Assembly: GCA_030390025.1 (NCBI GenBank)
Contig: CM059433.1
Span: 68,820,001 to 68,884,000, forward strand
Length of the DNA: 64,000 nucleotides
Reading direction: 5' to 3'
From: Squalus acanthias
Taxonomy: Eukaryota
How positions within the stretch are numbered: position 1 is the stretch's first letter; each line of letters opens with the position of its first letter. The notes beneath the pieces are model-generated. The model saw only the letters and a program-made list of their open reading frames with translations. It was not told the DNA's origin and did no database searches. Position numbers and translations under genes: made by a program. This document shows, in pieces, positions 5,514 to 63,588 of this stretch.

Positions 5514-6454
5514 GGGGGTGATTTTGCCAATGGGGGCACGTTGGGGGCGGGACTGCTGTTGTCGGGTTTTAGTCCCGCCTCCATCGACATCCGGCCAACC
5601 CACGCTATTTTCCCTTGATTGATCTTGTTAAGCCCGCCCTGTGGGCTTAGCAGGCCAATTGAGGGAAAGCTGGTGACAGAGAACATCAGCGTATGACGTT
5701 TCATTTGTCAAAAATTTTTGACAGATGAATTGTCATCGTTTCAAACACTGACATACTCTAATACAAAAGCAAAATACTGCGGATGCTGGAAATCTGAAAT
5801 AAAAACAGAAAATGCTGGAAATACTCAGCAGGTCAGGCAGCATCTGTGGAGAGAGAAACAGACATTCTCTGTTGTTCGGTGAGTTCTTGTACTCAAGACT
5901 CACCAAACCTATTTCCTGAGCAGAAAGCAGATGGCTGTTGCATTGGAGAATGCAGCAGCCATTCTGTCATCTCTGCCGTGGAGATGCTGGAGCCTCCGGA
6001 TCCCCAACGATTGAAGCCTGCAGGAAGAAACAAAGGTAAGGAAACTTTTTTTTAAGACTTTTCACTCACCTCACATACTTACCTCTCCACACTTGCACCC
6101 ATCACTCACCTCCACAGCGCACTTTTGGACCCCTCTCACCCCCGCAGACCCACTGCTCGCCTCGCTGACCCTGGCGGGGTTTCCCGACGTCAGGAAGCCC
6201 GCACTTCTGTTGGAAAAATGGGGATAATCCTCTTAACTGCCTGTTAACTACCTGTTAACAGGCAGTTAAGTGGCTGTAATCCCCTTCCCGCCTCGAGGAG
6301 ACGGGACCCGGCGCGGGACGGGACCCGGCGCGGGTCGGGTACCCGCCTCCTGGGAAGATGGCATGGAGGCTTGGGTACCCGCCCCCAGATTCTGCCATTT
6401 TCCCGGCAGTCCCGCCTCCAAACCCGCCTCCCCAGGGCTGGCAAAATCGTCCCC
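5514..6454 (+). mobile_element. Non-autonomous PIF/Harbinger-type element, family A (copy 1), with a nested Penelope-like fragment
   Basis: TIRs GGGGGTGATTTTGCCA / TGGCAAAATCGTCCCC; 3-bp TSD AAG (5511-5513, 6455-6457). Homologous to copies at 9189, 21551, 23630 and 33112. Confidence 0.88.
5760..5860 (-). mobile_element. Penelope-like pLTR fragment (family 2) nested in Harbinger family A
   Basis: ATACTGCGGATGCTGGAAATCTGAAATAAAAACAG block, also seen at 39341 and about 18297, and absent from other A copies. Imperfect 10-bp TSD gacatactct/gacattctct (5750-5759, 5861-5870). Confidence 0.7.
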
Positions 6455-7361: not shown

Positions 7362-8242
7362 GGCCGCGATTTTAATCGATCGATGCGGGTTGGGAGCAGG
7401 TCAAGTGGTTTCCAGGTTCCAGTCCCGCCCCCAACTTCATCCAGCCCACGGACGTGATTTTACGTCAATTGGCCTTGTTAAGCCCGCCCTGCGGGCTTGC
7501 CGGCCAATTAAGAGGAAGCCGGTCAGATTACGTCATTTGATGATGTGTCATCTGCTGGTTTTCTTAAAGGGACCACGCACATGTTTTCTTTGACAGCTCA
7601 TTTCTCAGTGTTTGACAGCATTAAGGTGCTGCAAACACTGACAATCACTGTTCACAGGTGAGCTCTTGCACCCAGGCTCTCCAGTGACTCCCTCCTTAGG
7701 CTAGAACAGATGGCAGCTGCAGGTGAGGTTACAGAAGCGATCTGTCACTGGTGAGAGAGGTTCTCCCAATGAGGTGGGACTAGACATACAATTCAAAACT
7801 TGTTACCTACAGAAAAGTCTAAATGCATTAAAAATGAATTTCCCAACATTTCCTTACCTCTGAAACTCACCAGTGCATCATTGGATCCTTCACACCACTT
7901 CTGCAGCTGTCATTAATGCAGAAACATTACAGCAGACTCACAACACGCCACACTTACCTGGCGTGGTGTCCGGACGTTGGGAAGCCCGAAGTAGAAGAAG
8001 TGTCAAAATTCCAAAAGAGCCTGTTAACTGCCTGCTAACAACCTTTAACAGGCAGTTAAGTGACTATAATCCTCTTCCCGCCGCTAGGTGTCGGGTCCAT
8101 GCGCAAATCGGGGACCCGACACTTGGGAAGATCGATTGGTGGTGGGTTGACAGTGGGTTTCCTGCCCGCTGTCAATCTTTGTGATTTTGCCAGATGTCCC
8201 GCCTCCAAACTCGCCCCCCTGAGCGCTGGCAAAATTCCGGCC
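7362..8242 (+). mobile_element. Non-autonomous PIF/Harbinger-type element, family B (copy 1)
   Basis: TIRs GGCCGCGATTTT / AAAATTCCGGCC; TSD TAT. A highly similar inverted copy lies at 62597-63441. Subterminal layout is shared with family A. Confidence 0.88.
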
Positions 8243-9188: not shown

Positions 9189-9385
9189 GGGGGTGATTTT
9201 GCCAATGGGGGCGCGTTGGAGGCGGGACTGCTGCTTGTTGGGTTTTAGTCCCGCCTCCATCGACTTGTGGCCAATCCATGCTATTTTCCCTTGATTGACA
9301 TTGGGTACCCGCCCCCAGATTCTGCCATTTTCCCGGCAGTCCCGCCTCCAAACCCGCCTCCCCAGGGCTGGCAAAATCGCCCTCC
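9189..9385 (+). mobile_element. Internally deleted family A Harbinger derivative (about 200 bp)
   Basis: The first ~110 bp and last ~85 bp of family A are joined near 9300; both TIRs retained; TSD imperfect. Confidence 0.8.
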
Positions 9386-10202: not shown

Positions 10203-11632
10203 AACAACAACTTGTATTTATATAGCGCCTTTAACATAGTAAAACGTCCCAAGGCACTTCACAGTGACACTGAACCACATAAGGAGATATTAGGGCAGAT
10301 GAGGTAGGTTTTAACGAGCATCTTAAAGGAAAGAGAGGTGGAGAGGTTTAGGGAGGGAATTTCAGAGCTTAGGGCATTGGCAGCTGAAGGCACGGCCACC
10401 AATGGTGGAGCGATTAAAATCAGGAATGCTCAAGAGGCCAGAATTAGAGGAGCGCAGATATCTCGGGGGGTTGTGGGGCTGGAGGAGATGACAGAGATGG
10501 GGAGGGGTGAGGCCATGGAGGGATTTGAAAACAAGGATGAGAATTTTAAAATCGAGGTGTTGCTTAACCAGGAGCCAATGTGGGTCAGCGAGCACAGGGG
10601 TGATGGGTGAATGGGACTTGGTGCAAGTTAGGGCACCAGCAGCAGAGTTTTGGATGACCTCAAGTTTACGGAGGGTAGAACGTGGGAGGCCAGCCAGGAG
10701 TGAATTGGAACAGTCAAGTCTAGAGATAACAAAGGCATGGATGAGGATCTCAGCAGCAGATGAGCTGAGGCAGGGGCGGAGTCAAGCATTGTTCTGGAGA
10801 TGGAAATAGGTGGTCTTAATGGTGATGTGGATATGTGCTCGGAAGCTCAGCTCGGGGTCAAATATGAGACCAAGGTTGCGAACAGTCTGGTCAGCCTCAG
10901 ACAGTTGCCAGGGAGAGGGATGGAGTCGGTGGCTAGGGAACGGAGTTTGTGGCGGGGATTGAAGACAATGGTATTGGTCTTCCCAATATTTAGTTGGAGA
11001 AAATTTCTGCTCATCCAGTACTGGTTGTCTGACAAGCAATCTGACAATTTAGAAGAAGCGGAGCTCCGAAAGCTCGTAATTTTAAATAAAACTGTTGGAC
11101 TATAACCTGGTGTTGTGCGACTTCTCATTTTTGACAATTTAGAGACAGTGGAGGGGTCGAGAGAGGTGATGGTGGGGTAGAGCTGGGCATATGGAAACTG
11201 ACGCTTTGTTTTCAGATGATGTCACCAAGGGACAGCATGTAACTGAGAAATAGGGGAAGCCAAGGATAGATCCTTGGGGGACACCAGAGGTAACGGTGCA
11301 GGAGCAGGAAGAGAAGCTATTGCAGGTGAATATCTGGCTACGATTTGATAGACAAGAATGGAACCAGGTGAGTGTAGTCCTGCCCAGCTGGATGACAGAG
11401 GAGGGGGATGGTGTGGTCAACTGTGTCAAAGGCTGCAGACAGGTTGAGAAGGATGAGGAGGGCAAAGGAAGTTTACCTTTGTCACAGTCACATAGGATGT
11501 CATTTGTGACTTTGCTGAGAGCCGTTTCGGTACTGTGGCAGGGCGGAAACCTGATTGGAGGGATTCAAACATGGAGTTCTGGGAAAGATGGGCACGGATT
11601 TGGGAGGCGACAACACGTTGGAGGACTTTGGA
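10203..11632 (-). mobile_element. L2-clade LINE, 5'-truncated and decayed
   Basis: Minus-strand RT remnants (TVTSGVPQGSILG, WMSRNFLQLNIGKT, HWLLVKQHLDFKILILVFKSLHG) and 3' tail CGCTATATAAATACAAGTTGTTGTT ending at about 10203. Confidence 0.85.
11054..11131 (+). mobile_element. 5'-truncated Penelope-like pLTR fragment (family 1) inserted in the L2
   Basis: Matches about 45400-45470. Flanked by an exact 12-bp TSD TGACAATTTAGA (11042-11053, 11132-11143). Confidence 0.8.
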
Positions 11633-17745: not shown

Positions 17746-18296
17746 AGATTCTACAGCCTCATATTAAACACATTTAGCCAGCGGGGAGAGAAGGCTTCCA
17801 TCCCATCAATCTGTGCTGAATTCGTACTCAAGTTCTAGAGGTGGAAAGGCAATCTGCCAAGCCACTGCACCATCCAACTTTTCATTCCCACTGTTTTCAA
17901 TGGAGAAAGTTCAATCAGTCACATTATTGCCTGTCAGGAGGCTGATGATGTGCATGAAATTGTGGCATATGTTTGGCTGAGTTACTGTAATCCTTAAAAG
18001 TCAATCTGCGTTCCAACCCAATGCAGTGAACTTCTAATGTTGTTTCCGATGTAAAGTGAATCTCGGCCAAATTTCCACCTTATTGTTTGTTCCTGAGCAG
18101 TGAATGCCTTTAAAAGTTATAATGTGAGACAGGTGGTGAAAGCAAAGACTGAAATTTAAACCTATTACTATAGCTGAAATATTTATGGAAATTCCATTGG
18201 CTGCTTCATTAGATCTAACGGCTTCCGCACTAGCAGCAAAATGAAAAGGTCTGAACCCAAGCACCTCAGCTATACACAGGATCATTAAAGTGAAAA

Positions 18297-18425
18297 GACA
18301 AATACTGCAGATGCTGGAGGTCCGAAACAAAAAACAGAAAAGGCTGGAAACACAGAGCAGGCCAGCCAGTATCTGTGGAGAAAATGGACATATTTACAGG
18401 TCAGGTGCAGACCCTACTTCAGAAC
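18297..18425 (-). mobile_element. Degenerate Penelope-like pLTR fragment (family 2)
   Basis: AATACTGCAGATGCTGGA...AAACAGAAAAGGCTGGAAA...ATCTGTGGAGA, similar to 5760 and 39341. Confidence 0.55.
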
Positions 18426-19283: not shown

Positions 19284-21550
19284 GGTGGAAGGACTTCTAC
19301 CATGCCGAGGTTGAATTCCAATTATGACCCACTATTCCTGCTCCTCCTGGCCCCACAAAAATAAAACCAGACATTTGTAGGATCCCCTTCGGCCAAACCG
19401 CCCACTGATACAGGACAAGCCTACATTCTGCCCAGTATCCTCCGAAAAATGCCAATTGGATTGTATGCAGGTCATAGGACTCCGATTTGCCTTTTAAATA
19501 GGCCTACCATCTGACTTGGGGCGCTCTGGATGCCAAGCGCTAGCCCCGGGGGTATATGGCCGCGGCCAGAGTGATGGCTGGAGTGGGGCGGGAAGTCTTT
19601 CCCTACGATTTTTGGGGTGCTACTGCCTTGATCTGCTGGTGGGAAGTCTCAAAATATAACCTGATGTCTCTTCAGTACCATCCAAACAATTAAATACTTG
19701 AATGTCACTGTATTTATTTTATTTAAAATACGGCTTCTTGGGGAACAGAATGCTATTAAATGTTTTATTGATTAAAGTGATCACTTCTGTGATTTACAAC
19801 AACAACAACAACTTGTATTTATATAACGCCTTTAACATCGTAAAACGTCCCAAGGCGCTGCACAGGAGTATTTTAAGGCAACATTTTTTTTTAAGCTTTT
19901 GATGAAGAACAGGAAGGGAGATGTGAGAAACATTATATCCATTTGAGATGCCATCTGCAACTAAATGCACACGATGGTGCAAGATACCACTTCATGGCAC
20001 TAATCTCAATAAGACTCACAAAAATTGGGAAATTCCAAGAAGTTGAAACAGTTGACGCGTTTGTAAAATTTCACGTGAAAAATCATCAAACTAAGTAGGC
20101 TGCTATCAGTAAATCTCACCGTAAACCTGCAATGGTGCAAGACACCACTAAATACTGGCATCAGACAGGAAAGCTGAGCCTCTTCTCAAATGGTCATGTC
20201 TATAATTAAAGTGTTAGCTTGGTCACCGTTGTGAAAGCTAGTTCATGATTATCTTGTCCTGCTAACAAATTATGAAATCCCAAATGTTTAAATGCACTAA
20301 TGTGGTAACTTCAACTTGTTCCTACTGCACAACTTAACAGACTGAGACTGCTTCTTCATAACCATACTCCAAATTGCTAATTTGATGGGTTAAAAGCAGG
20401 TGAATTAAATTGAGCGCTGCTGTTGCTAAAGAGACTGTTCAAAGTCTTCAAGATTAACATCCTGTTGTGAACATGCCGTGCATTTCAGCTTTTTTCACTG
20501 CAGCAAATTTCTATTCGTGATCGCAACAATAACTGCTAATGTCGTTATTGTGCTAACTTCAGTGATAATGCTTTATTCGCAGGGTGGTGAGGGATGTAGA
20601 ACTCACTATAAAAACTTTCCACTGTCCCTGCCCCAAACAGAGCTGCTGAAGCTGCGAGGCCCATCTACTCTTTTAAAGCAATATGTAAACAGCTTTTCAA
20701 CAACAACAAAAAGCAGCATAATCGTCGACCCAACAATAGTCAAATGCAATGCGGCAAGCGACCACTGATATTCAATCTTTGTTGCTGTGTTAGGTTTGAC
20801 GTGAGCTTTTCATCAAGCGAATCAAGCACAAAAAACACTAGTAATTCAATACAATGTACCCACAATGGAATAAAGATCTAGAAAATAACTAACAATAACC
20901 GGCAGACTTCAATGACTGTGCACAAATTCTATTGTAATACTGAGTCTACTAGTAATAAAAAGGCAGTAAAATACTGGTAAATTTATGGCAGATGAGAATA
21001 ATTTGGCCTGCAACTTGTATTGCAAATCATATCATCATCCTCACATAACCAGAACATGACGGTAGTGTTGTGGAATGACCTCTTAGCAAGGAACAAGTTA
21101 CAATGGCATGTAACACAAGCTGATCTCTAGACATTCAATCTAGTTCCTACTAGGCATGAATCTACTGCACACAACAGTCCCTAATCTGCTACTAAATTGG
21201 CATCTCACTTAGACAGGCTGCAGGATAGCTGGTGCAGGAAATGAAATAATGTTAAATTAGTGAAGTAGAGGAGCTGATTGGACGTTGGAGCTAGGGAATA
21301 CTGTTGGAGAGTTTTATTCTGTAAGTACCGATGATATACTTGACATTCATTTTCCTGCCACTAACATTTGTCACGTTGATAATCACAAAAAGAACAGAGC
21401 CACAGATCTGTTCACCCCTCATGTCCCTTTCATTAAAATGAAAACTAATATCCTACTGTGAGCACTGGACTTCCAACTAGCTTTGATTACTGAAAGTTCA
21501 CCGACTCTCGATGGATAAGTTTTTGATCAAATTATTAGATGGGAGTGTAT

Positions 21551-22388
21551 GGGCTGGATTTTCCAAGCCCCGAGGAGGTGGGCATGGAGGCGGGACAGCC
21601 GGTAAAATCGGAGAAAGTGGGGGCGGATGGCAAACCTGCCCCCGTGCCATTTTGCCAGGAGGCGGGGAGATGTGCAGCTTCGGGTCCCATCTCCTGGAGG
21701 CGGGAAAGGCATTTAATCCTTTTAACTGCCTGTTAACAGGTAGCTAACAGGCAGAAAAAAGGATTAGTGCCATTTTACCTTCACAGGTGAAGGCTTCCCG
21801 ACCTCGGAGAACCCCACCTGGTTGGAGGAGACATGGAGGAGGTCTGCGCTGGTCGGAGGCACCTGGAAGTAAGGTGTAGAGGTGAGTGATGGGTGCAAGT
21901 GTGGAGTGGTAAGTATGTAAGGTGAGTGATAAGTTTTTAAAAAAGTGTGCACTTACCTTGTTTTCTTTCTACCAGCCTTTAGCCGCGCTGGATGGGGAGA
22001 GCCGATATTCTCCTTGTCAATTTCACATAATGGCTGTTGGATCCTCCGATCTTACAGACATGTGAAATTTACAAAGTTTAGAGGTTTGATGAGTCCTCAC
22101 CACAAAGGCTCATCAAACTAAAGAGAATGGAAGTGTTTGACAGCTTCACAGAGCTGTCAAACACTGTCATTTCTTCTTTCAAGAAGTCTCGACAGATAGC
22201 ACGTCTGACATTGACGTGATCTGTCAGTGACTTCCTCCCTAATTGGCCTGTTGAGCCTGCAAGGCGGGCTTAAGAAGCTCAATCAGGGGAAAATCCCTCT
22301 GATTGGTCAGGTGAAGATGGAGGCGGGACATTGACACGACAAGCAGAAGTCCCGCATCCAACTCGCATCCATTCACAAAATCCAGCCC
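21551..22388 (-). mobile_element. Non-autonomous Harbinger, diverged family A relative (inverted)
   Basis: Perfect 12-bp TIR GGGCTGGATTTT / AAAATCCAGCCC; flanks TAT/AAT; colinear with family A. Confidence 0.85.
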
Positions 22389-23534
22389 AATGTGTATAAA
22401 TGGAGGCAGAACTAATGTCTCCCTACCATGAAGTGGCATTGCCTAGTCCATCCAGCTGATGTAGGAAGCATGACACTGGAGGCAAGCAGAGAAAGAGGGG
22501 GGATAAATAAACCAGTTTTATTTTATTTATTTTATCAGTACATTACACAAGGATTGAAAAAAAAAAGTCCATAACAAATATTTGCTGGGCATAGAAGACA
22601 GTGCTGTCTCATAGAAACCGTTTCCCGTCATTATTAAGGGCAGTAACAGGCAGCATTCTTTCATTGCTGTTCACTAGAAGTGTTTGCATTTTTCAGGTTA
22701 CAGCTTTGGAGACCACAAAATTTAAATAGTCATAAAAACTAACCCCAGTAATGCAATCCAACATGACCAGCCTCCCTAGATCACCAGAGAACATTAACCA
22801 CAGCCAGCCAAACTAGAGCCACACACTCACTGCTAAGCCCAGGGATTTAAGAAAACAGAATTCAGTTCTTTGCCTCCACAAGATAACAAAATAGGAAAAG
22901 AGGAGAAAAATATTGTTTAAACTCCTGTCTTTTTTGCTGCCCCAGCCTCAGATGCCAAGCATCACGGCAGAGAATGTAGACCATGCAAGCACAGGGGGAC
23001 ATTAGTCACTCTGTATACCACGTGAAAAGTTACTGGTACAAACATGGTTCAACCTCTTTGTGCCAAAGTACACTGAAACATTACTATACTGTACTACCAT
23101 GCCACATTAAATACAAATTGACCCTGAATTTTAATGATTTAGTGTATTGAAAATCTGAGAGCCTCATGGTACGCTCTCACCATAAGTCCCGCAAATTAGG
23201 CCAGAAACCAGATGCACTGGGCCGCAGCCACGACTGCTAATTGTCATGGGGCCTTATTTGTGCCAGAACCTCGGTCTGTCCCGTAATCTTTTTGCATCAG
23301 AGGAGGTGTAGCCAGGGGGAGGAGACTGTCAGGCCTAAAGCTTCCTTGGTCCCAGGATGAGATTCACTGGGCGGCCATTATACCAGGAAAAGAAAATATA
23401 TGGGTCTCCTGGCCAGTGGAAATGGGACCCACCTGGTTCTGGCTGGAACCCCAAAGAACACAGTCAGCATAGGGGAGGAAGCTCCCCACATTAAAACTAC
23501 AGGGTTGTCAGCATAAAGACAAATGGCTGTTCAA

Positions 23535-24760
23535 GTGGTGTTCAAAATCATGAAGGGTTTGATAGAGTGAATAAGGAGAAACTGTTTCCAGTGGTAGAAG
23601 GGTCAGTAACCAAAGGACACAGATTTATGGGACTGGATTTTGTCAATGGGGGCGCGTTGGGGGCGGGACTCCTGGTTGTCGGGTTTCAGTCCCGCCCCCA
23701 GCGACGTCTGGCCAACCCATGCTATTTTCCCTTGATTGATCTTGTTAAGCCCGCCCTGCGGGCTTACCGGCCAATTAAGGGAAAGCCAGTGACAGATGAC
23801 GTCAGCGTATGACGTTTCATCTGTCGAACATTTTTTGACAGATGAATTGTCAGCGTTTGACAGCTTGGAGAAGCTTTCAAACACTGACAATCTCTGTTCT
23901 AAGGTGAGCCCTTGCACTAAAGGCTCACCAAAACCTCTCTCCTCAGCAGAAAGCAGATGGCTGCTGCATCTGAGAATGCAGCAGCCATTCTGTCATCTCT
24001 GCTGTTGAGATGAGGTACCGCTGGATTCCCCAAGGGTTGAAGCCTGCAGGAAGAAGCAAAGGTAAGGAAACTTTTTCCAACACTTTACACTCACCACTCA
24101 TACTTACCTCTCCACACCTGCACCCATCACTCACCTCTACAGCGGACTTTTCGATCCCTCTTATCCCCGCAGACCCACTGCTCGCCTCACTGACCCTAGC
24201 GAGGTTTGCAGCCATTGGGAAGCCCGCACTTGCTGGGGTAAAATGGGGATAAGCCTCAAAACTGCCCCTTAACTACCAGTTAACAGGCAGTTAATTGGCT
24301 CTAATCCCCTTCCCGCCTCGAGGAGACGGGTCCCTGCGCTAGTCGGGGACCTGCCTCCCGGGAAGATGGCATGGAGGCGGGTTGTGAGCGGGGTCGGTAC
24401 CTGCTCCCAGTTTCTGCCATTTTCCCAGCAGTCCCGCCTCCCCAGGGCTGGGAAAATTCCCCCCAAGGTGATTTTCAAAGGAAGCAGAGGTGGCAAACAA
24501 AGCAGAGGTGACATGAGCAAAAAAAAATTTATGCAGCAAGTTATGATCTGGAATGTACTGCCTGAAAAGGTGGTGGAAGCAGATTCAATAATAACTTTCA
24601 AAAGGGAATTGGATTAATCTTGAAGGGGAAAAACTTACAGGGCTATGGGGAACGAGCAGGGTCGTGAGACTAGTTGGATAGCTCTACCAAAGAGCCGGCA
24701 CAGGCACGATGGGCCGAATAGCCTCCTTCTGCTCCGGATCATTCTATGATTCTTCTGATT
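23535..24760 (+). mobile_element. CR1 LINE 3' end split by a family A insertion
   Basis: VFKIMKGFDRVNKEKLFP...TKGHRF on the left; WNVLPEKVVEADSI and an ATTCTATGATT tail on the right. Confidence 0.8.
23630..24464 (+). mobile_element. Non-autonomous Harbinger family A (copy inside CR1)
   Basis: TIRs GGACTGGATTTT / AAAATTCCCCCC; TSD ATG/AAG. The empty-site CR1 sequence agatttAAGgtgatt is visible at 48241. Confidence 0.88.
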
Positions 24761-33111: not shown

Positions 33112-35775
33112 GGGCTGGATTTTGCCAGCCCTGGGGAGGCGGGTTTGGAGGCGGGACTGCCGGGAAAATGGCAGAATCTGGGGGCGGGTACCCATCCCGC
33201 TCCCAACCTGCCTCCGTGCCATCTTCCCGGGAGGCAGGTAGCCGACCCTCGCCGGGTCCCATCTCCTGGAGGCGGGAAGGGGATTACAGCCACTTAACTG
33301 CCTGTTAACAGGCAGATAAGAGGATTATCCCCATTTTACCCACACAAGTGCGGGCTTCCTGAAGGCTGAAAACCCCGCCAGGGTCACCGAGGCGAGCAGT
33401 GGGTCTGCGGGGGTTGTAGGGATGCAAAAGTGCGCTGTGAAGGTAAGTGATGGGTGCAAGTGTGGAGAGGTAAGTATGTGAGGTGAGTGGAAAGTGATAG
33501 AAAATGTTTACTCACCTTTGTTTCTTCCTGCAGGCTTCAAACGTTGGGGATGCGGAGAGTCTCGCATCTCACCGGCAGAGATGACAGATGGCTGCTGCAT
33601 TCTCCAATGCAACAACCATCTAATTTCTGCTCACAAAAGAGGTTTGATGAGTCTTGAATACAAGAACTCATCAAACAACATAGAATGTCAGTGTTTGACA
33701 GCTTTGACAGTGAAGTGCGGCTGGCCCATGAGAGGGAGGATGGCGAAAGGGGACATGGAAGTGGGAACTCCACTCAAAGCGCTTCCACGTCTCACCCGTT
33801 GTCCCCACCCCCTCAGTCATTACCCAATATACTGCCTCGTCTCCCGATGGCCCAGTCTGCCACCGCACAGGTGCGGGTGGAGCAGTCTTTGGCCGGGCCC
33901 TCACAGGCTGCAAAACCCAGAGGTTGTCGGCCAAGAGCATCTCAGCAGTCAGAGCAGGGATCTGAGCTGCCTGCCTCTATGGAAGAGTGGCCATTGCATG
34001 TGGTTCTGACATGGGTCCACTGGTGGAACCTAAGTGAACCTTGCGTTAATAAGGGCATCCCTGGCAACAATGTGAGCAGCTGGTGCTCCATTGCCCTCAT
34101 CACCTTCCTCCGCCTCCTCAGAATCGTCTGCAGACGATCTGCGCCTTGTTCCTCCTGCAGGTCCAAACCTCGCTGCTGTGCAATGTTGTGCAGAAGGCAG
34201 CACACCACGACTATTCTGGACACCCTGACTGGTGTGTATGGAAGGGCTCCTCCAGATCTGTCTCAGCACCTGCAGCTCATCTTCAGCATACTGATGGCTT
34301 GTTCGATCAAACATCTGGTGGTTATAAGGCATTCACTGCAGCGCTGTTGGGCTTCATTGGTCGGGTTTCTGACGGGTGTAATCAGTCAAGTTTCAAGTGG
34401 GTGTTCCTTGTCTCTGGCAGCCATCCCTTAAGTGTGCTTGCAGATCCAAAGATGTCAGGGAGCTTGGACTGCTGCAGCATGAAAGCATCATGGCAGCTGC
34501 CCAGGAATCTTGTGCACACCTGCAGAAGTATCTTTTTGTGATTGCATACCAGCTGCACATTGATGGAATGGAAGTTCTTGCGGTTGATGAATACTACTGG
34601 TTGATCTGGGGGTGTGCGAATTGCCACGTGTGTGCAGTCAATGACGCCCTGCACCTGTGGGAAGCCAGCCAGAGCAGCAAACCAGAGCGCCCGCTTATTC
34701 TAATTGGCATCATCGCAGAAAAAAGTGTACATAATTGTCGGCCCTGGAAAACTAGTCAGCAGTCACCTGTCTTATGCATTTGTGGGCTGCCGACTAGGAG
34801 ATCCTGGATATCTCACCGGCAGAGCCCTGGAAGTATCCGGAGGCAAGAAGTTGAGGGTGGTGGTCACTTTGACAGCCATTGGTAATGTGTGGCCACCAGG
34901 TCCAGCAGGGAGCAGGTCTTCTAGGAGGCTGCAGATATCTGTCACCACCTGATACGACAACCTGAGCCTCCTGAAACACTGCTGTTCCGACATGTCAAGG
35001 AAACTCAGCCACTGCCTGTGCACCCTATGTTGCAGGTAGTGACTCCTGCGAGCTACTCCCCTCTGTCCAGCTGCAGGTCTCTGAACAGCAGGCTGGTGGT
35101 GCTGCTCATATTGCTCAGAGGTCCAATCTAAGGCAGCCAAGGCGCCAGCCATCCTGATGTGATTCAGAAAACTTCCAGCGTGTAGAATGTAAACTCTGAG
35201 CAAAAGTACAGTGAACAAACCCTTTCCCACTAGTAGGTAAGAAGTAGCAGAGAGTACAGAGTATTTATTGTAGTATTTCCATGAGTTTTGATCAGCCGCC
35301 TCAATTGCCGTTGCATTCCTGCCTTGCTTTCATTGGTGAGTTTCAGGAAGCTCGGGAAACCCGTGGATGCGACATTAAATTTAAAAGAGAGTGGTTAGAA
35401 TGTGGAACTTGCTACCACAAGGAATAGTTGAGGCGAGGTGACAAGCAGAGATGCATTTAAGGGGAAGCTAGATAAACACGAGGGAGAAAGTAGTAGAAAG
35501 ATATGTTGATGGGGTTAGATGAAGTAGAGTGGGAGGAGGCTCGTGCGGAGTATGAACACAGGCATGGACCTGTTGGGTCGAAAGGCCTGTTTCTGGGCTG
35601 TAAATACAATGATATACTATGTAAAAGTGTGTTGAAATATGGCTCCAATTGAGTGATTAACATATATTAATAAGCAATCCTCCTCTCCCGAGGGGTTTGC
35701 ACGCAACCAGCCTAACATACTTGAATTAAACTCGAAAGTCAGCGGGTTGGAGCCGGCTTCCTGACGCGCTCCCAT
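33112..35775. mobile_element. Composite Harbinger locus: inverted family A half (33112 to ~33710) fused to an autonomous Harbinger remnant
   Basis: Left TIR GGGCTGGATTTTGCCA, ~600 bp of family A, then a Myb-gene 3' remnant (+) and transposase (-). No intact right TIR; a CR1 3' piece is inserted at about 35385-35625. Confidence 0.75.
34030..35152 (-). pseudogene. Harbinger (HARBI1-like) DDE transposase, frameshifted
   Basis: QQCFRRLRLS, AVKVTTTLNF, QGVIDCTHVAI, FINRKNFHSINVQLVC, GSCHDAF and VCCLLHNIA, spread over several frames. Confidence 0.9.
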
Positions 35776-39317: not shown

Positions 39318-39815
39318 ACAAACTTGCATTTATATAGTACAAAAACAAAATAATGCAGATGCTGGAAATCTGAAATAAAAACAGAAAATGCTGGAAATAC
39401 TCAGCAGGTCAAGCAGCATCTGTAGAGACAGAAACAGAGTTAACGTTTCAGGTTGATGACCCTTCGTCATTTATATAGTACCTTTTATAACCTCAGGACA
39501 TCCCAAAGCACTTTACAAAGGATTAATTACTTTTGAAATGTAATTACTGTTGTTCTATAGGCAAACGCAACAGCCAATTTGTGCACAGCAAGATGCCACA
39601 AACAGCAATGAGATAAATTATCAGTTAATTGGTTTTCTAGTGGTGTTGGTTGAAGGGGAACTTCCCTGCTATTCTTAGAATCGTGTCATAGGATTTTTTA
39701 CATCCACCCGAGAAGGCAGGTGGGACCTCAGTTTAACGTCTTATCCAAAAGACAGCTGCTCTGACAATGCAGCACTGCCTTACTACTGAAGTATCAGTGC
39801 AGATTATGTGCTCAT
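39318..39815 (-). mobile_element. Deu-domain-like SINE interrupted by a Penelope-like fragment
   Basis: Homologous to the SINE at 16806-17745. Confidence 0.7.
39341..39467 (-). mobile_element. Penelope-like pLTR fragment (family 2), truncated within a hammerhead core
   Basis: Exact 14-bp TSD CATTTATATAGTAC (39327-39340, 39468-39481). Minus strand reads (a)TGACGA-AGGgtcatcaaCCT-GAAA-CGTT. Confidence 0.8.
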
Positions 39816-43215: not shown

Positions 43216-44272
43216 TCATTCATTGGAACCGGAGTCTGACGAGGCGCTCACGGCCAGCCCATCCAGAACGGAGATCTGATGCCTGCCTCCTCTCTTCCTC
43301 CTCCTGAGGTGGTCCCGGAACCCATGGTGGCCAAGTTGTGCAGCATGCAGCAGACCATCACGAAATGAGACACCCGCTCCAGCAAACACTGGAGGGCCCA
43401 TCCCGAGCAGTCAAGGCAGCAGAACCATTGCTTGAGCACCCCGATGGTCTGCTCGATTAGGTTCCTCATGGCAGCATGGCTCTCATTATATGCTTGCTGG
43501 CCACAAGTGCTGGGGTTGTGGAGGGGAGTCATCAGCCAGGTGCAGAGCGAATAGCCCTCATCTCTGAGTAGCCACCCTCGGGTTCGACATGGTGGCTGGA
43601 TGATTTCTGGTACACTGGACTGGTGCAGGATGAAGCCATCATGACTGCTGCCAGGATACCAGGTATTCACCATCATAATGTGCTGGGCGTGGTCACACAC
43701 CAACTGCACATTAAGTGAGTGGCAGCTTTTGCGGTTATGGAACATCTCAGGATTGGTATGTGGTGCCCTGCACCATTGGGAAGCCCGATATCCTGGCAAA
43801 GCCACATGCGCGCTTCGTCCTGTTTCTCTCCGTTCAGAGACAAGACAATGAAGTCCCTTCTCCTGGAGCACAGAGCCTCTGACCTCCCGGATGCAGCGAT
43901 GGATGTCAAACTGGGAGATGTTAGCTAGGTCTCCTGCTCCAGACTGGAACAAGCTGGTGGCGAAAAAAATTGAGGGCCACGGTGACCTTGAAGGCCACTG
44001 GCAATGCCGTCGTCGTCCTGCTCGGAGGCTGCAGGAGGTGGCAGAGCTGTGACCACCTCCTTGGTGAAGCAGAGCCTCCTAATACACTGCCCCTGGCTTA
44101 AGTGCAGGTAGGAGAAGTGCTCTCGGAAGACCCTAGGTGGATAAGGCCTCCTGCTGAGAGCCCTCCTGCCCCTCCTCCACCCTCTGCAAGCATCTTGTCA
44201 TCTACTTCGCTGCCTCCGCTCCAACTTCCTGTCATACTCGAGCGTGAGGGGGACTGCAAGTAGAGCCCCCAT
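43216..44272 (-). pseudogene. Harbinger DDE transposase, decayed (DCTH motif deleted)
   Basis: QCIRRLCFTKEVV, FHNRKSCHSLNVQLVCD, YPGSSHDGFIL, WLLRDEGY, YNESHAAMRNLIEQTIGVLK, CCMLHNLA. Confidence 0.88.
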
Positions 44273-45336
44273 GACTGGGAGCAAGTGGTCTGAACAGAAC
44301 CCTTTAAATCAGAAGCAAGGCCTTCTCCACTTGCAGCAACACTCCCCGTCACCTGACCAACTTTAAATAACTGTAGAAAGCTCCAAACAGTTGCACAAAC
44401 TTACACGGAGCCAGTAGAAATCAAAAAGCAAGTCAGCTGCAAGTTGTTGCTGATCCCTTTTAATAGCGCTGGTGGGTGGTCCTTCCTGCTGCTGGACGCA
44501 TGTTCAGCTGGTTGTGATTTGAAGAGGGCGTTAAAAGGAGCGGCAACATCCAAAATAGCAGGTCGTGTGTCAACTCAGCATTGCATGCCGATTGACGTCA
44601 CAATCTGCCTCATCTAAATATCTGCAGCGAGCACAGGCAACGACAGCACTGTCGGCCTGCCCAAAATGGCGGCCGCTGCATTCTGCACTGGAAATGGACG
44701 GAAGCGAGGCAGCCGCCATTTATTCTTCCAAACCAGCCTTAACGGCCGACACAAACGAGACCAATTTCCTAGCCCCAGTGTACTAATCAAAACACTTCCC
44801 ATTACAACAGCAATCTTCATCATAAAGGAATAGTCTGAATGCATGTCCACCTTGACTGAGTTATCATACTCAAAAAACAGGTCTTCTCAGGCAGGATTCA
44901 TTGTTCATGTACAATCTTACATTTAGCTTTCACCTAACACTACCTTGAATTTCTGTCTCTGCACTTTTGAAATCAAAATTTTCAAATCATTGGCCCGGTT
45001 CATACAGTAGCAGAGAACTTTGCCGCTGACACAGGGAGTGATTGATTATCACACCATCATGTCTTATGGTGTTCTGAGCACTTGTCTGAACACTATATTC
45101 ACACTTAACTCAGGGCAGTCATAAACATTGCAACATTTTATTTATAACCACAGCAATCAAAGTAGAATTGAGATACAGTTTTGGGTTCACTCATAATTAG
45201 AAGGTGGCAGAACACATGAAACTTCCGGTTTTTAATTACCAGTTTTCCCCGGGCTGTAGGTCAAATTTGCCCAGTTGAAAAACAAAAGTGAGAAGTCGCA
45301 CAACACCAGGTTATAGTCCAACAGTTTTATTTGAAA

Positions 45337-45375
45337 TCACAAGCTTTCGGAGCTGCTGCTCCTTCGTCAGGTGAA
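45337..45375 (-). ncRNA. Minimal type I hammerhead ribozyme motif (CLIC5-sense strand)
   Basis: Minus strand reads TTCAC-CTGACGA-A-GGAGC(agca)GCTCC-GAAA-GCTT-GTGA. Confidence 0.72.
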
Positions 45376-45380
45376 GTGAC

Positions 45381-45418
45381 TTCACCTGATGAAGGAGCAG
45401 CGCTCCGAAAGCTTGTGA
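45381..45418 (+). ncRNA. Minimal type I hammerhead ribozyme motif
   Basis: TCAC-CTGATGA-A-GGAGC(agc)GCTCC-GAAA-GCTT-GTGA: core boxes intact, stem II, stem I TCAC/GTGA, palindromic AAGCTT in place of stem III. Predicted cut after 45414. Confidence 0.72.
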
Positions 45419-46874
45419 TTTCAAATAAAACTGTTGGACTATAACCTGGTGTTGTGCGACTTCTCACTTTTGTCCACCCCAGTCCAACACCGGCATCTCT
45501 GCATCACAGTTGAAAAACTGCAGTGACTTGTGCTTTCAGCTCACATCATCACTGCACCAGTGAGTAATGCTGCTGGTATATTTTAGGACTAAATGTCAAC
45601 CAATCCTTGCTGCTCTGGAAAGCTCCCTGCTATCGGGTGTCAGCTAAGTAGTGTATCTAACCATCAGGCCCTTACCATCTCTAAACTCTGCCAAGACAAG
45701 GACCTGCAAGAAGGAAAATCTGTAATAAAACGCGATGCTGCAGGAAAACTTAGGATGCAAAGAAAACAATAACTCAGTTTCAGTTATATGGAGTTCAATT
45801 TGTCAATGGAAATTCAGAATCGAATCTGCTCCTACGTGTTTTTTCTCTCCGCTGTTGGTATTTGATCCAAACACTGGCGTTTCAGGTTACTGAGCTGGAG
45901 TGCTACTCACTCTGACGTTCTGCTGATAGCTATATGCCAATGGAAAATTGCTATTTCAACTGCTACAGTACAAACCCTCACAATCTTGGACAGTGGTGCC
46001 AATTCAGTAGCTGCTTCATCTTTCATTTCAAGTTGTACTGAAGTCAGCAGCCCTACAATACAAGAGGAGCATGTCCCCAACTTTTTAAACACGGGTCTCC
46101 CTGGTAATGCTGTAATGATGTTGTTGCAGGGAGTTATTTTCAGGTTTATTTTAGAAGCAAATTATGGACAGCAAATGCGCATGACTTTACACAGCTCAGG
46201 ATTACGCAGCTTCAGCCCAAAGAAGGAATGATATTGGAAATTAAGTTTCAGGCTTGTAGAAGTCACAATGGGAAATATCACAAATTTGGTGGAACTGTGT
46301 AGACAAGCACGTTTTTCTGGAAGGACATGACTGAAAAGTACCAGAACCCACAGCACCATTTTGAGTCAAAGAATATTTTAGGCTAGTGCAAAATTTTCCG
46401 GCGCGGACACGATGGGCCGAAATGGCCTCCTTCCGTGCTGTAACTTTCTATGAAATGGAGCTTTAGAATACTGAGACTTCAACAGTTTTCAAAGGGAACA
46501 TCTTTCCTTCTTTAGTGAGATAATATTAAGGCCCTAACCAGTCTGTTCACAGCACTAACAGACTACCTATGACTCACACAAACGACAGGAAAAAGTCATC
46601 GTCAACCCATGGCCTTTAATAATTTATTTATAGGGTTCAAACAAACTATTTTTATAGACAGCTGCTGCTGGACAACATCAACTGCAGCAAATTCTTTATA
46701 AATATACAGGTCAAATTCTACACGAGAAATAAGAAGTGGATTGGTTTCTCTTTTACTAAATGTTAGATAGAATTTTTAATTTTAATTTGAGAACTAATTG
46801 CTAAGTGCAATGTACCAAGATTACTCTGTTGGAAACATAATTCTCCTCTCCTAAAAGTAGTGTCGCCTGCTGAG

Positions 46875-47764: not shown

Positions 47765-48530
47765 TCATTATTGAGGAGAGGCAATATAAACTAAAGGGTA
47801 CAATTCTAAAGGGGGTGCATGAACAGTGACACCTGGGGATATATGTGCACAAATCATTGAAGGTGGCAGGGCAGGTTGAGAACGCAGTTAAAAAAGCATA
47901 CGGGATCCTGGGCTTCATAAATAGAGGCATAGAGTACAAAAGCAAGGAAGTTATGATGAACCTGTATAAAACACTGGTTCGGCCTCAACTGGAATATTGT
48001 GTCCAATTCTGGGCACCGCACTTTAGGAAGGATGTGAAGGTCTTAGAGAGGGTGCAGAAAAGATTTACAAGGCTGGTTCCAGGGATGAGGTATAGACTGG
48101 AGAAGCTGCGGTTGTTCTCCTTAGAGCAGAGAAGATTGAGAGAAGATTTGATAGATGTGTTCAAAATCATGAGGGGTCTAGACAGAGTAGAGAGAAAGAA
48201 ACTGTTCCCATTGGCAGACGGGTCGAGAACCAGAGGACACAGATTTAAGGTGATTGGCAGAAGAACCAAAGGCGACATGAGGAAAAAAGTTTTTTACGCA
48301 GAGAGTGGTTGGGATCTGGAATTCACTGCCTGAAAGGGTGGTGGAGACAGATTCAATTGTGGCTTTCAAAAAAAAGGGAATGGGATAAGTATTTGAAGGA
48401 AAAAAAATTGCAGGGCTCTGGGGAAAGGGCAGGGGAGTGGGACTAACGGAAGTGCTCTTGCAGAGAGCCGGCATATGCTTGACGGGCCGAATGGCCTCCT
48501 TCTGTGCTGTAACTATTCTACGATTCTATT
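47765..48530 (+). mobile_element. CR1 LINE 3' end
   Basis: KKAYGILGFINRGIEYKS...LVRPQLEYCVQFWAP...RTRGHRFK; tail ATTCTACGATTCTAT. Confidence 0.88.
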
Positions 48531-49859
48531 ACCCACAGCTGCACAGTGGCAAAAGCAGTTGGCAATCAAGGAGCTTCCCTCCAGTTAGCGAGCCTGAAGT
48601 ATCAGCTCCCTCGAAGTAGACAGCTTCCCCCTCATTTCTTCCTCCTGTACTCTAGAGGCAGCAGGTGTCCACTCAAATCACCTGATTTTCTGTCCATTAA
48701 TTTAAATGGACAATCAGGCATGCAATCCCCTCTGCCCGATTTTCATCTATTCGCTGTGCTCATGCAATCCAATGCTCTCAGGCACAATACCTGGAGAATC
48801 TGTTCTGTGAAAGACTTGATATTGGTGATTATCTGGGTTATGTGTTTAGGGTGGGCTTTTGCAGCAAGAACTTAGAATTTTCAAATTTGAATGTCTGAAC
48901 CAAGCTGTGCATTTATTAATTTTTAACATATTTTCAGAATCTTACACTCTGGCTGGTTTACACTTATTTACAAAAATGTATGAAGAGGATGCACCCTGGG
49001 GGCCACTTGCTTGCAAAAATAAACACCGGATTGTGCGTCCATGGGGCAGTTATATGATTGGTTAACACAAAGCAAACCATGGGTTTACCAGTTGGTGTTC
49101 CTGGACCTCATGGGATCTGCAAGGGGCTGGCAGGGGATTCCTTAAGTCTTCAGATTTCTGTATTTGTTGATTTATATATAAGATCAATTAGTAAAAACAT
49201 TTTCTGAAATTCCTTTTGGTAGCTGACACTATCACTTGGAGTGTTAACATTTTCAGGGGGTCCCACACAGAAAGGGTTGAAAACCATTGCCAGAAATCCC
49301 AATTGGTATTCTATTTGTATACAATGGTCTAGGTCTTCCTTCCTCTCAGCAGAAGTGTGGCAGGGTGAGACTTATAAACGGCGCAAAGGATGCATCAGGT
49401 TCCTGCCTGGCCCTAGCTGGCAAAGTGCACTCTGAAGAATTTCCTGACACACTTCATTCAAGTTAAACCCGAGTTGGTGCAACTTGGATGGAAAATCTAG
49501 GCCAATATGTACACAGATATGAAATAGTTTTTGAAGTCCACTCATTTTTTTTGCTTGTTTATCTGTATTTTCAGGCACCCTGTTGCTAAGATGCAGAGCT
49601 ACACTTTTTTTTATATTCAGTCTGAGATTAGAGCTTTGAACATGAGGTGCTGTCTATCTCAAGAATAATGCAGTGTGAGTCACAAATTGTTAACAGGTTT
49701 ATTGGGTAGGAAGTAAATAGAGACAGTGTCGTGACTTCCGGATTTCGTCCAGTTTTCCCATCTGGATCACATACTCGTTCTCAAGCCCCCCCCCGCCCTT
49801 TAGACCTGGATCACGTACTTCCGCCATCCCCACTGTGCTCTCCGTACTCTTTACCACAC

Positions 49860-51290
49860 CCCCCACCCAGTTCCTGACCTCCTCTCTCTCCCCCCCTCCA
49901 ATTCCTCCTCCGATTCACCCTCCCCTCCCTCCCACCCCCCTTCCCTCCCTCCCTCCAATCCCCCCCTCCGATCCCCCTTCCCTCCCATACCGCCCTCCCC
50001 TTCCTTCCCTCCCTCCAATCTCCCCCTCCCTCCCCCCCACCCTCCGATCCCCCTCCGATCCAATCTCCCCTCCGATCCCTCTGCCCGATCCCCCCCTCCC
50101 TCCCTCTGCCCGATCCCCCCTCCCTCCGACCCCCCTGCCCGATCCCTCCCCTATTCCTCCCTCCCCTATTCCCCCCTCCCCCCGATCCCTCCCCTATTCC
50201 CCCCCTCCCCCGATCCCTCCCCTATTCCCCCCCGATCCCTCCCCTATTCCCCCCCTCCCCCTCCCCTATTCCCCCCCTCCCCCTCCCCTATTCCCCCCCT
50301 CCCCCTCCCCTATTCCCTCCCTCCCCTATTGCCCCCCTCCCCCTCCCCTATTCCCCCCCTCCCCCTCCCCTATTCCCCCCCTCCCTCCCCCCTATTCCCC
50401 CCCTCCCTCCCCCCCCNNNNNNNNNNNNNNNNNNNNNNNNNNNNNNNNNNNNNNNNNNNNNNNNNNNNNNNNNNNNNNNNNNNNNNNNNNNNNNNNNNNN
50501 NNNNNNNNNNNNNNNNNNNNNNNNNNNNNNNNNNNNNNNNNNNNNNNNNNNNNNNNNNNNNNNNNNNNNNNNNNNNNNNNNNNNNNNNNNNNNNNNNNNN
50601 NNNNNNNNNNNNNNNNNNNNNNNNNNNNNNNNNNNNNNNNNNNNNNNNNNNNNNNNNNNNNNNNNNNNNNNNNNNNNNNNNNNNNNNNNNNNNNNNNNNN
50701 NNNNNNNNNNNNNNNNNNNNNNNNNNNNNNNNNNNNNNNNNNNNNNNNNNNNNNNNNNNNNNNNNNNNNNNNNNNNNNNNNNNNNNNNNNNNNNNNNNNN
50801 NNNNNNNNNNNNNNNNNNNNNNNNNNNNNNNNNNNNNNNNNNNNNNNNNNNNNNNNNNNNNNNNNNNNNNNNNNNNNNNNNNNNNNNNNNNNNNNNNNNN
50901 NNNNNNNNNNNNNNNNCCCCCCCCCAATCTCCCCTTCCCTCCGATCCCCCCACACCCCCCCCCCCAATCTCCCCTTCCCTCCGATCCCCCCACACCCCCC
51001 CCCCGATCTCCCCTTCCCTCCGATCCCCCCACACCCCCCCCCCCCGATCTCCCCTTCCCTCCGATCCCCCCACACCCCCCCCCGATCTCCCCTTCCCTCC
51101 GATCCCCCCACAACCCCCCCCGATCTCCCCTTCCCTCCGATCCCCCCACACCCCCCCCCGATCTCCCCTTCCCTCCGATCCCCCCACACCCCCCCCCGAT
51201 CTCCCCTTCCCTCCGATCCCCCCAACACCCCCCCCGATCTCCCCTTCCCTCCGATCCCCCCTCCCCCCGATCTCCCTCTGCCCCCCTCTC
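49860..51290. repeat. C-rich low-complexity/minisatellite tract spanning an assembly gap
   Basis: Left of the gap: CCGATCCC and CCCCTATTCCCC units. Right of the gap: a ~37-bp unit CCCGATCTCCCCTTCCCTCCGATCCCCCCACACCC, about 9 copies. Confidence 0.92.
50417..50916. other. Assembly gap (500 N)
   Basis: Run of exactly 500 N, probably a placeholder size. Confidence 0.99.
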
Positions 51291-61869: not shown

Positions 61870-63588
61870 TCTTGGCCCCCTTCTGTTCCTCATCTATGTG
61901 CTGCCCCTTAGCTTTACCTCTCCACCACTGTTTCGATCCCTCCACTGCCTCGGTGTTGTCAGACTGCTTCTCTGAAATACAGTCTTGGATGAGTTACAAT
62001 TTCTTCCAGTTAAACATTGGGAAGACCAAAGTCATCGTTGTCAGCCACCAGCACAAAGTCTGTATCCTTGCCATAGATTCCATCTCCCTCCCCAGTCAAT
62101 GTCTCAGCTTGACTCAGACTATTCACAACCGCGGTGTCTTATTCAACCCTGACCTGAGCTTTCAACCCCATATCCTCGTCATCACAAAGATCGCCGACTT
62201 CCACCTCTGCTCCCATCTCAGCCCGTCAGCTGCTGAAAGCTCTCCTGGCCAGCCTCCCATATTTCACTTTCTGTAAACTTCCATATTCATCCAAAACTCT
62301 GCTGTTCCTATCCTATACCAAGTCATGCTCACCCACATTCTCTGTTCTTGCTGACCTACATTGGCTTCCGGTCCCAAACACCTCCAATTTAAAACTCTCA
62401 TCCTCATGTTTAAGTCCCTTCATGGCCTTGGCCCTCCTCATCTCTTTAACCTCCTCCAGACCTTCAACTCCTCCCAAACTCTCCATTCCTCTTACTCTCG
62501 TCTTGCGTATTCTGTCCTCCTTTCGCCCCACCATTGGTAGTTGTGCTTTCAGCAACCTAGGCATTACGTACTGGAATTCCTTCCCTGAAACACTCTGGCC
62601 GGAATTTTGCTGGCGCTCAGGGGGCGGGACCTCTGGGAAAATCGCAAAGATTGACAGCGGGCAGGAAACCCGGTCAACCCGCCTCCAATCAATCTTCCCA
62701 AGTGTCGGGTCCCCGATTTGCGCAAGGACCCGACACCTAGCGGCAGGAAGAGGATTATAGCCACTTACCTGCCTGTTAAAGGTTGGCTCTTTTTCAATTT
62801 TGATACTTCTACTTCGAGCTTCCCGACATCCGGACACCACGCCAGGTAAGTATGGCGTGTTGTGAGTCTGCTGTAATGTTTCTGCATTGATGACAGCTGC
62901 AGAAGTGGTGTGAAGGATCCAATGGTGCACTGGTGAGTTTCAGAGGTAAGGAAATGTTGGGAAATTCATTTTGAATGCATTTAGACTTTTCTGTAGGTAA
63001 CAAGTTTTGAATTGTATGTCTAGTCCCACCTCATTGGGAGAACCTCTCTCACCAGTGACAGATCGCTTCTGTAACCTCACCTGCACCTGCCATCTGTTCT
63101 AGCCGAAGGAGCAAGTCACTGAGAGCCTAGGTGCAAGAACTCACCCGGCGAACAGTGATTGTCAGTGTTTGCAGCACCTCAATGCTGGCAAACACTGAGA
63201 AATCAGCCGTCAAAAAAAAAATTGTGCGTGGTCCCTTTAAGAAAACCGGCAGATGATATGTCATCAAATGATGTCATCTGACTGACTTCGTCTTAATTGG
63301 CCGGCAAACCCGCAGGGCGGGCTTAACAAGGCCAATCGACGTAAAATCATGTCTGTGGGCCGGATGAAGTTGGGGGCGGGACTGGAACCCGGAAGCCACC
63401 TGACCCGCTCCCAAGCCGCATCGATCGAGAAAATCGTGACCTCTGTCTCTTGACAACCCTGACTAAGGTTTTGATCACACCTCCCAATATCTTCTTCGGT
63501 TCAATGTCAATTTTTTTAATTACATGTCTGTGAAGCCTTGGGACATTTGAGACGTTAAACGCATTGTATATAAATGCAAGTTGTAGTG
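61870..63588 (+). mobile_element. L2 LINE 3' part split by a family B insertion
   Basis: WMSYNFFQLNIGKTKVI; tail GTATATAAATGCAAGTTGT at about 63566-63585. Confidence 0.78.
62597..63441 (-). mobile_element. Non-autonomous Harbinger family B (copy 2, inverted)
   Basis: TIR GGCCGGAATTTT / AAAATCGTGACC; exact TSD TCT; reverse complement of 7362-8242. Confidence 0.88.

Follow-up and report, generated by a model that had tools for sequence, protein, structure and literature searches.

The window analyzed here, a 64,000-nucleotide stretch of the Squalus acanthias genome, contains a non-autonomous Harbinger element of subfamily A1 at 23630..24464 on the forward strand. This copy is 835 bp long and 94% identical to the A1 consensus of 847 bp, with 12 bp near the right end missing; 28 full-length A1 copies were present in our sample. 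The insertion is flanked by a 3-bp target duplication, read as ATG on the left (23627..23629, +; one change from AAG) and as AAG on the right (24465..24467, +). A paralogous LINE fragment near 48250 provides the empty site, and RNA reads derived from other LINE copies skip 23627-24491. The left TIR, GGACTGGATTTT (consensus GGGCTGGATTTT), occupies 23630..23641 (+), and the right TIR, 12 bp long and read on the forward strand as AAAATTCCCCCC, lies at 24453..24464 (−).

The left half of the element carries a series of local palindromes. A 13-bp stem at 23658..23700 is an inverted pair of a recurring GG(A/G)GGCGGG motif and displays an A-T to G-C swap between subfamilies; judged by sequence, its arms are likely Myb-like or GC-box binding sites. 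An extended palindrome at 23726..23785 holds the 9-bp inner stem AAGCCCGC..GCGGGCTT (23746-23766) together with a CCAATT box. Two of its 18 arm columns vary among the five A consensuses, and the right arm of the inner stem is non-complementary in the related families P, M and T. The CRE-like TGACGT region (23791..23846) carries two overlapping stems, a 9-bp stem at 23791-23825 and another at 23816-23846 that joins sequences adjacent only after a deletion specific to family A. The deletion spans 22-25 bp, including the parent's TATA-like TTAAAG, and the new neighbors form a stem of 10-13 bp. The GC box, CCAAT, CRE and TATA labels are consensus motifs that we take to be putative sites. The nested (8+6) hairpin TGTCAG.GTTTGACAGCT..AGCTGTCAAAC.CTGACA (23846..23891) is positioned directly before a dead Myb start. 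It is imperfect in P, extended in B and near-invariant in A, where a one-base bulge of B is filled and 7/42 arm columns vary. Next is a relic of the first codons of a Myb/SANT gene (23890..23945, +), its ATG now ATC; the Myb identity of related exons was given by Pfam PF13873. Inside this relic sits the covarying stem 23903-23929, and the coding version in P has no stem.

A 13-bp stem (23957-23988) and a 7-bp stem occupy 23957..24013. The counterpart of this region in P adjoins a relic transposase start, lying just upstream of it on the minus strand, and the inner stem is missing in both P and B. The unpaired middle (24059..24136) contains four 5' splice-site motifs, AG/GTAAG at 24059-24066 on the plus strand and three on the minus strand at 24090, 24103 and 24130, which vary among the A consensuses only at the purine of GT(A/G)AG. 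Further right, the GTTAAC hairpin (24260..24292) has consensus arms of 12-14 bp, with three changes in the present copy. It is near-invariant in A (2/28 arm and 0/5 loop columns vary), and the corresponding region of T or P forms no hairpin. At the right, the subterminal stretch 24308..24452 is an array of GGAGGCGGG / CCCGCCTCC motifs, oriented both ways, that pair into two or three stems. These stems differ between A and B by multi-base swaps, and the motif recurs in the transposase-side end of T.

Serial stem-loops had been described for this element in an earlier note, and all five that it named are present (23658-23700, 23746-23766, 23791-23825, 23846-23891 and 23957-23988). With loops of up to 40 nt allowed, the element contains 12 perfect stems of at least 7 bp, compared to 2.0 ± 1.2 (maximum 5) in 60 dinucleotide shuffles, and 9 of at least 8 bp, compared to 0.5. 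The RNA folding z-score of 23630-24464 is −17.4 on the plus strand and −12.1 on the minus strand.

Including the A1 element, seven related copies or fragments lie within the window. The others are a family A copy with an A1-like left and an A3-like right part (5514..6454, +; TSD AAG), a B1 copy (7362..8242, +; TSD TAT), a 196-bp internal-deletion copy of family A retaining only the two ends (9189..9384, +), an A2 copy (21551..22388, −; TSD ATT/ATA), an A3 copy without its left 241 bp (33112..33704, −) and another B1 copy (62597..63441, −; TSD AGA). An unrelated 104-bp insertion interrupts the 5514..6454 copy at 5759-5862, and the same repeat occurs at 18293-18381 and 39335-39438. First-look searches of the 3.7-Gb genome with three copies gave at least 9,397, 5,798 and 9,304 candidates. 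Profile search of 400 kb sampled regardless of the element recovered 3 full-length copies and 13 partial matches of at least 150 bp; by this measure the window is richer in the element than average. Its flanking repeats resemble those of sharks. From 242 matching regions, the best matches of each search, we collected 186 full-length copies. They group into seven subfamilies, each with 23-30 members: A1-A5 (844-847 bp) and B1-B2 (876-878 bp). The subfamilies are 58-92% identical to one another, and divergence within them is 1.6-4.2%, a low estimate because the sample consists of best matches. Consensus comparison revealed that the A and B subfamilies are mosaics of one another, and further subfamilies surely exist.

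The element is not a new kind. Shared TIRs, 3-bp TSDs, collinear ends, internal deletion and a coding relative with transposase and Myb genes identify it as a non-autonomous Harbinger, as the earlier note had labeled it. The TSD is exact in 107 of the 186 full-length copies and has one mismatch in 38, while 9.2 exact duplications are expected from shuffled pairs. The target context is palindromic, WC-NNN-GW, with C at −1 in 82/107 and G at +1 in 76/107 of the exact-TSD copies, and its center is A/T-rich and not strictly TWA. Profile searches recovered older elements matching A and B at their ends and containing either a Harbinger transposase or a Myb exon. Family T (L396-L407) is complete, young and 4,247 bp long, with 3-bp duplications and, at both ends, the 12-bp TIR that is the family A consensus; its ends are collinear with those of A and B. 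Open transposase frames of 438-440 codons were found in 3/12 T copies examined, and the 440-codon frame matches PF13359 (E 6e-36) in both copies scanned. The Myb gene of T is convergent to the transposase frame, and related Myb exons match PF13873 in 3/3 cases (E about 1e-8 to 1e-10). TIR identity and a youth like that of A4 make T a candidate mobilizer of family A.

Family P (L316-L345, for example L084:3172 onward; about 10,000 first-look candidates in the genome) is 1,773 bp long and keeps the first Myb exon without a transposase. B1 aligns to P in three separated blocks of 70-83% identity. The Myb start is ATC in A and B2, with no coding capacity. Deletion from a Harbinger transposon with two genes gave rise to family A, which has no gene left and retains the Myb-side end with a promoter-like region and the dead start of Myb, then a short middle, and lastly the end on the transposase side. 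Two top-scoring types of young autonomous family, L121 and L129, were rejected as relatives, as only a TIR-like pattern is common to them and A/B; a match of B to L121 is only apparent and reflects an autonomous element nested within a B-like copy. Harbingers are frequently nested in one another. One young autonomous family other than T (L121:3463-7977, L123, L127) carries, within its first 120 bp, two hairpins with arms that covary between subfamilies; terminal palindromes are therefore found in autonomous Harbingers too. Genome-wide, first-look candidates number 63,886 for DDE_Tnp_4 and 58,164 for Myb_DNA-bind_5, and the window itself contains remnants of two Harbinger transposases, decayed by stops and frameshifts (34131-35008 and 43323-44113, both −).

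Stem content, measured as the percentage of bases in perfect stems of at least 7 bp, was compared across these families, of which P, M and T are relatives and not proven ancestors. Over the left 420 bp, T has 4% and autonomous M 11%, P reaches 15%, B 17-22% and A 28-40%; over the right 260 bp, the figure is 7% for T, 18% for P and 25-36% for families A and B. Given these relationships, the direction of change is secure only at sites where the Myb reading frame survives in P. The site of the covarying stem reads MTAQRHRAAPRF in P and forms no stem. One arm is rewritten to near-complementarity in B, A1, A2, A3 and A5 carry perfect or extended stems of differing sequence, and A4 is without a scored helix. 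In the new arms, on ex-Myb codons and across the deletion joint, several bases were replaced at once. Most internal stems lack the GGAGGCGGG motif and are not found in P, M or T. Comparison of the families indicates that the hairpins were gained after gene loss. The coding sequence of P has a perfect 12-bp stem of its own, which is imperfect in M.

The earlier note had further claimed that one stem covaries across copies and that family B keeps equivalent stems. The four variants of the covarying stem are found as claimed at 5878-5904, 23903-23929, 33646-33672 and 22085-22117. Most stems are indeed kept in B, but the GGTGAG stem is imperfect there (GGTGAG..CTCTCC). When the A1-derived structure was placed on 18 real copies, 85.1% of cells were paired, compared to 35-45% with slid partners, and cells with two-sided changes numbered 92, compared to 47 ± 5 in shuffles and 27-38 with slid partners. 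In the same 18 copies, the pairs with a two-sided change (26) were not above shuffles (26.4), and further pair types (75) were below them (86.6). In 17/18 comparisons of consensuses, double changes exceed the number expected under independence by a factor of 2-5. The seven consensuses yield 65 distinct Watson-Crick swaps over 60 column pairs, some in lineage-specific helices and all among mosaic subfamilies, and 76 double changes that break the pair; 65/141 (46%) therefore keep it, compared to 34% expected (p 0.002), although the events are not independent. Even subfamilies that have diverged by 12-42% retain perfect stems of 9-14 bp. The covariation is real but moderate, and the pairing in 18 copies together with the double changes and swaps among consensuses indicates that symmetry, not coding, is maintained between subfamilies. 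Indel depletion was considered as a sign of fixed spacing and rejected (97 indels per 1,668 substitutions in ten subfamily pairs, compared to 285 per 5,323 in copies); the A consensuses are nonetheless all 844-847 bp long.

Inserted copies and the transposing lineage behave differently. Among the 186 copies, private non-CpG changes in stems number 546, compared to 545.1 expected from unpaired sites, stem double changes 5 compared to 3.8, and mismatch repairs 5 compared to 5.8. There was no sign of host selection or of ongoing correction after insertion in these copies, a test that a few exapted loci among tens of thousands would escape. Among the five A consensuses, 6/11 A1 helices vary less than background (P 0.016 to 2e-6), including the GTTAAC hairpin with its loop, a result that is partly circular because the helices were defined, from A1, on the same consensuses. 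Three stems on ex-coding or UTR sequence vary like background, with 12/16 variable columns in one and 13/24 and 11/14 arm columns in the two stems of 23957-24013. The helices thus form two classes, one conserved in sequence and one variable yet mostly paired. Class 1 is composed of the motif pairs near the ends and the AAGCCCGC, TGACAG and GTTAAC palindromes. Class 2 contains the stems on former coding and UTR sequence, including the covarying stem, and changes at the rate of unpaired DNA. In copies, CpG sites decay at 4.8 times the rate of the remaining sites. Between A1 and A2, 10/12 CpGs survive in stems and 15/34 elsewhere, whereas copy-like decay predicts 2-15%, which suggests that the transposing lineage is likely either unmethylated or selected for CpG.

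A structured RNA had been proposed as one source of this symmetry, and the strand signature of the changes does not favor it. Since 42/65 Watson-Crick swaps need transversions, those swaps did not pass through G·U. A G·U preference was sought on both strands and was absent (52 G·T and 61 A·C single-sided states on the plus strand, p 0.45), internal mismatches likewise have no strand preference (5 and 10, p 0.30), and the folding excess is roughly equal on both strands in 7/7 consensuses. Rfam scanning of 21500-24600 gave two weak matches, both under the gathering score, and no stable RNA tetraloop is among the short loops listed. In two RNA runs from one study, reads of 88-95% identity align to both strands of the element. 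Within these short reads from many copies, no start or end is dominant over the element and a discrete transcript was not seen, and the unique flank of the 23630-24464 copy has zero RNA depth. These observations, together with the neutral decay of stems in inserted copies and the probable location of most stems upstream of the parent's TATA-like boxes, argue against a structured RNA. Over element positions of about 320-545 the reads are strand-biased, 5-8 fold in one run and about 1.6-2.5 fold in the other, with the same bias on A1, A2 and A4 references. Judged from the bias over the transposase frame, the biased strand is likely that of the Myb promoter. RNA depth peaks in the unpaired middle (24059-24136). 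The strand-biased reads and the kept donor motifs make some RNA-level constraint likely in the middle of the element, where stems are few. Two other features of the reads were set aside: CpG decay in the reference copy accounts for an excess of A>G and T>C, which we do not take for editing, and the joints between opposite strands at 23832-23834 resemble artifacts of fold-back in the library.

Template switching is known to be able to create and maintain hairpins, and loop inversion with intact arms is described as its rare footprint (10.1101/2021.04.15.439925). Among 1,277 loops, a single inversion was seen, in the AAGCCCGC stem of an A4 copy. Mutation clusters matching a nearby reverse complement number 3/664, while the controls, reversed or complemented, gave none; the copy with the loop inversion contributes two of the three. 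The A4 copy L224 has two template-switch-type changes 60 bp apart, at consensus positions 66 and 126, as if from a single episode of error-prone synthesis. In yeast break repair, switches that perfect palindromes are reported, with mutation 1000 times higher (10.1101/2023.08.09.552703). Edge changes that extend a helix are weakly in excess (84 compared to 67 of 200, p 0.008; shared variants included). A consensus-level scan for reverse complements (6 compared to 1 and 0 for controls, among 1,318 clusters) was discarded, as such a result is expected from any symmetric sequence. In copies, these clusters are rare, 3 beside about 5,300 substitutions, so class 2 pairing by mutation alone needs either very many rounds of transposition or a much higher rate during gap repair. 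The possibility, already raised, that template-switch correction explains the symmetry is therefore upheld in part: the loop inversion and clusters support it as a source of symmetry, but it cannot alone explain the near-invariant helices.

Hairpins gained after gene loss that decay freely in inserted copies point to DNA symmetry rather than an RNA fold, and we consider it probable that they are a symmetry of double-stranded DNA kept only while the lineage transposes. Class 1 would be under purifying selection during mobilization, as paired inverted sites for the Myb/SANT partner protein and also for host factors through which the element would stay rich in CpG and accessible. The Myb-like protein of Harbinger3_DR is reported to bind a 9-bp subterminal motif (PMC9710019). 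Cut-and-paste elements are copied when the gap left by excision is repaired, and template switching during this repair could write one arm from the other, creating stems between any neighboring sequences and then re-perfecting them. Writing arm from arm would produce compensatory-looking swaps without a G·U intermediate. Gap repair with template switching has been proposed as the origin of foldback MITEs (PMC3814204). Alternatively, symmetry as such could be selected, with extruded cruciforms or single-strand hairpins boosting mobilization whatever the arm sequence, by way of bending, nucleosome exclusion, synapsis or completion of gap repair. The new stems on ex-coding DNA and at the deletion joint do persist, changed, in most A subfamilies, pairing in these helices is 72-81% compared to 35-45% with slid partners, strand symmetry is compatible with such selection, and the low template-switch rate in copies leaves room for it; internal sequences are also reported to affect mPing mobility (PMC9921582). 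However, class 2 arms vary like unpaired DNA, as correction without selection predicts, A4 amplified recently (1.6% divergence) despite having no scored helix at the covarying stem, and autonomous T is mobile with only 4-7% of its ends in stems. The stems are moreover short and GC-rich with loops of up to 17 nt, and such stems extrude poorly. Selection of structure is thus an unlikely explanation. Also doubtful is its fuller form, in which template switching would supply palindromes, more extrudable hairpins would bring more mobilization, and a transposon parasite would evolve its own sequence-independent, structural transposition enhancer.

Two other readings are weaker still. A structured RNA from two inward-facing promoters, aiding spread or host tolerance, would account for the strong folding, the promoter-like motifs, the four conserved donor motifs and the family-level reads with the same bias over about 320-545 on three subfamily references, and symmetry would be expected if both strands were transcribed. 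Yet the donor motifs sit in the unpaired middle, the TATA-like box is lost in A, and most stems would lie upstream of the parent's likely starts. With no G·U enrichment, mostly transversional swaps, no selection in inserted copies, no Rfam family at gathering score in 21500-24600, and reads that fall on both strands without dominant starts or ends and are absent from the unique flank, we hold this reading to be quite improbable. The stems could also be a by-product of one motif in both orientations and a symmetric ancestor, with swaps arising by chance and recombination. Several terminal stems are inverted pairs of GGAGGCGGG, which autonomous T and M also carry; pairs with two-sided changes are no more numerous than in shuffles, and the subfamilies are mosaic. 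Against this, most internal stems are motif-free and missing in P, M and T, the excess of double changes holds in 17/18 consensus comparisons, and perfect 9-14-bp stems survive 12-42% subfamily divergence. The by-product reading is very unlikely, and the stems that arose de novo largely refute it.

Several known systems resemble this one in part. As in our families, the parent of the zebrafish Harbinger3_DR and its non-autonomous partner (PMC9710019, PMC3016246) encodes a DDE transposase and a Myb/SANT protein, with a 3-bp target in a palindromic site and a repeated 9-bp subterminal motif. The dogfish elements differ in their TIR, in their motif (GGAGGCGGG, a putative site) and in their target, WC-NNN-GW with an A/T-rich variable center. 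The accessible passages of the same two papers make no mention of hairpin gain in derivatives, and hairpins and palindromes were not found in those of a review of fish Harbingers (PMC9179366). Tourist-like MITEs such as rice mPing (PMC9921582, PMC3814204) are likewise high-copy internal-deletion derivatives of PIF/Harbinger. Our families, at 844-878 bp, are longer than typical MITEs, and, compared to mPing, are not a plain deletion product but carry serial local hairpins, in seven long-diverged subfamilies of one architecture. Foldback or long-TIR MITEs (PMC3814204) also have a symmetry that is missing in the autonomous element and is ascribed to gap-repair template switching. There, the whole element or its ends fold back, whereas in our families short local palindromes, about a dozen of them, build up and turn over. 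Template switching in RNA stems (10.1101/2021.04.15.439925) shares the multi-base compensatory changes, one-step new stems and rare loop inversions. Those stems are retained by functional-RNA selection, in contrast to the present ones, which show no RNA signature and decay neutrally. Within the full-text literature searched, we found no description of serial hairpin gain in Harbinger derivatives; the A and B families themselves may already be in paper supplements, Repbase or Dfam.

In the dated series from T and M through P and B to A, covarying stems arise on defunct promoter and coding sequence and are probably kept only while the lineage transposes. This offers a natural test of whether gap-repair template switching can mimic the covariation used to call RNA genes. 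It also calls for caution in RNA-structure scans of repeat-rich vertebrate genomes. Because the genome also contains intact transposase copies bearing the family A TIR, the long-standing question of which internal features let derivatives out-compete their parents is directly testable. Two further repeats were also observed in the window. A near-perfect palindrome of 192 bp (97%) at 45282-45473, one arm of which is 91% identical to 11052-11133, is likely a small foldback element, and a C/T-rich tandem repeat with units of 11 bp and 38 bp surrounds a run of N at 49854-51286.
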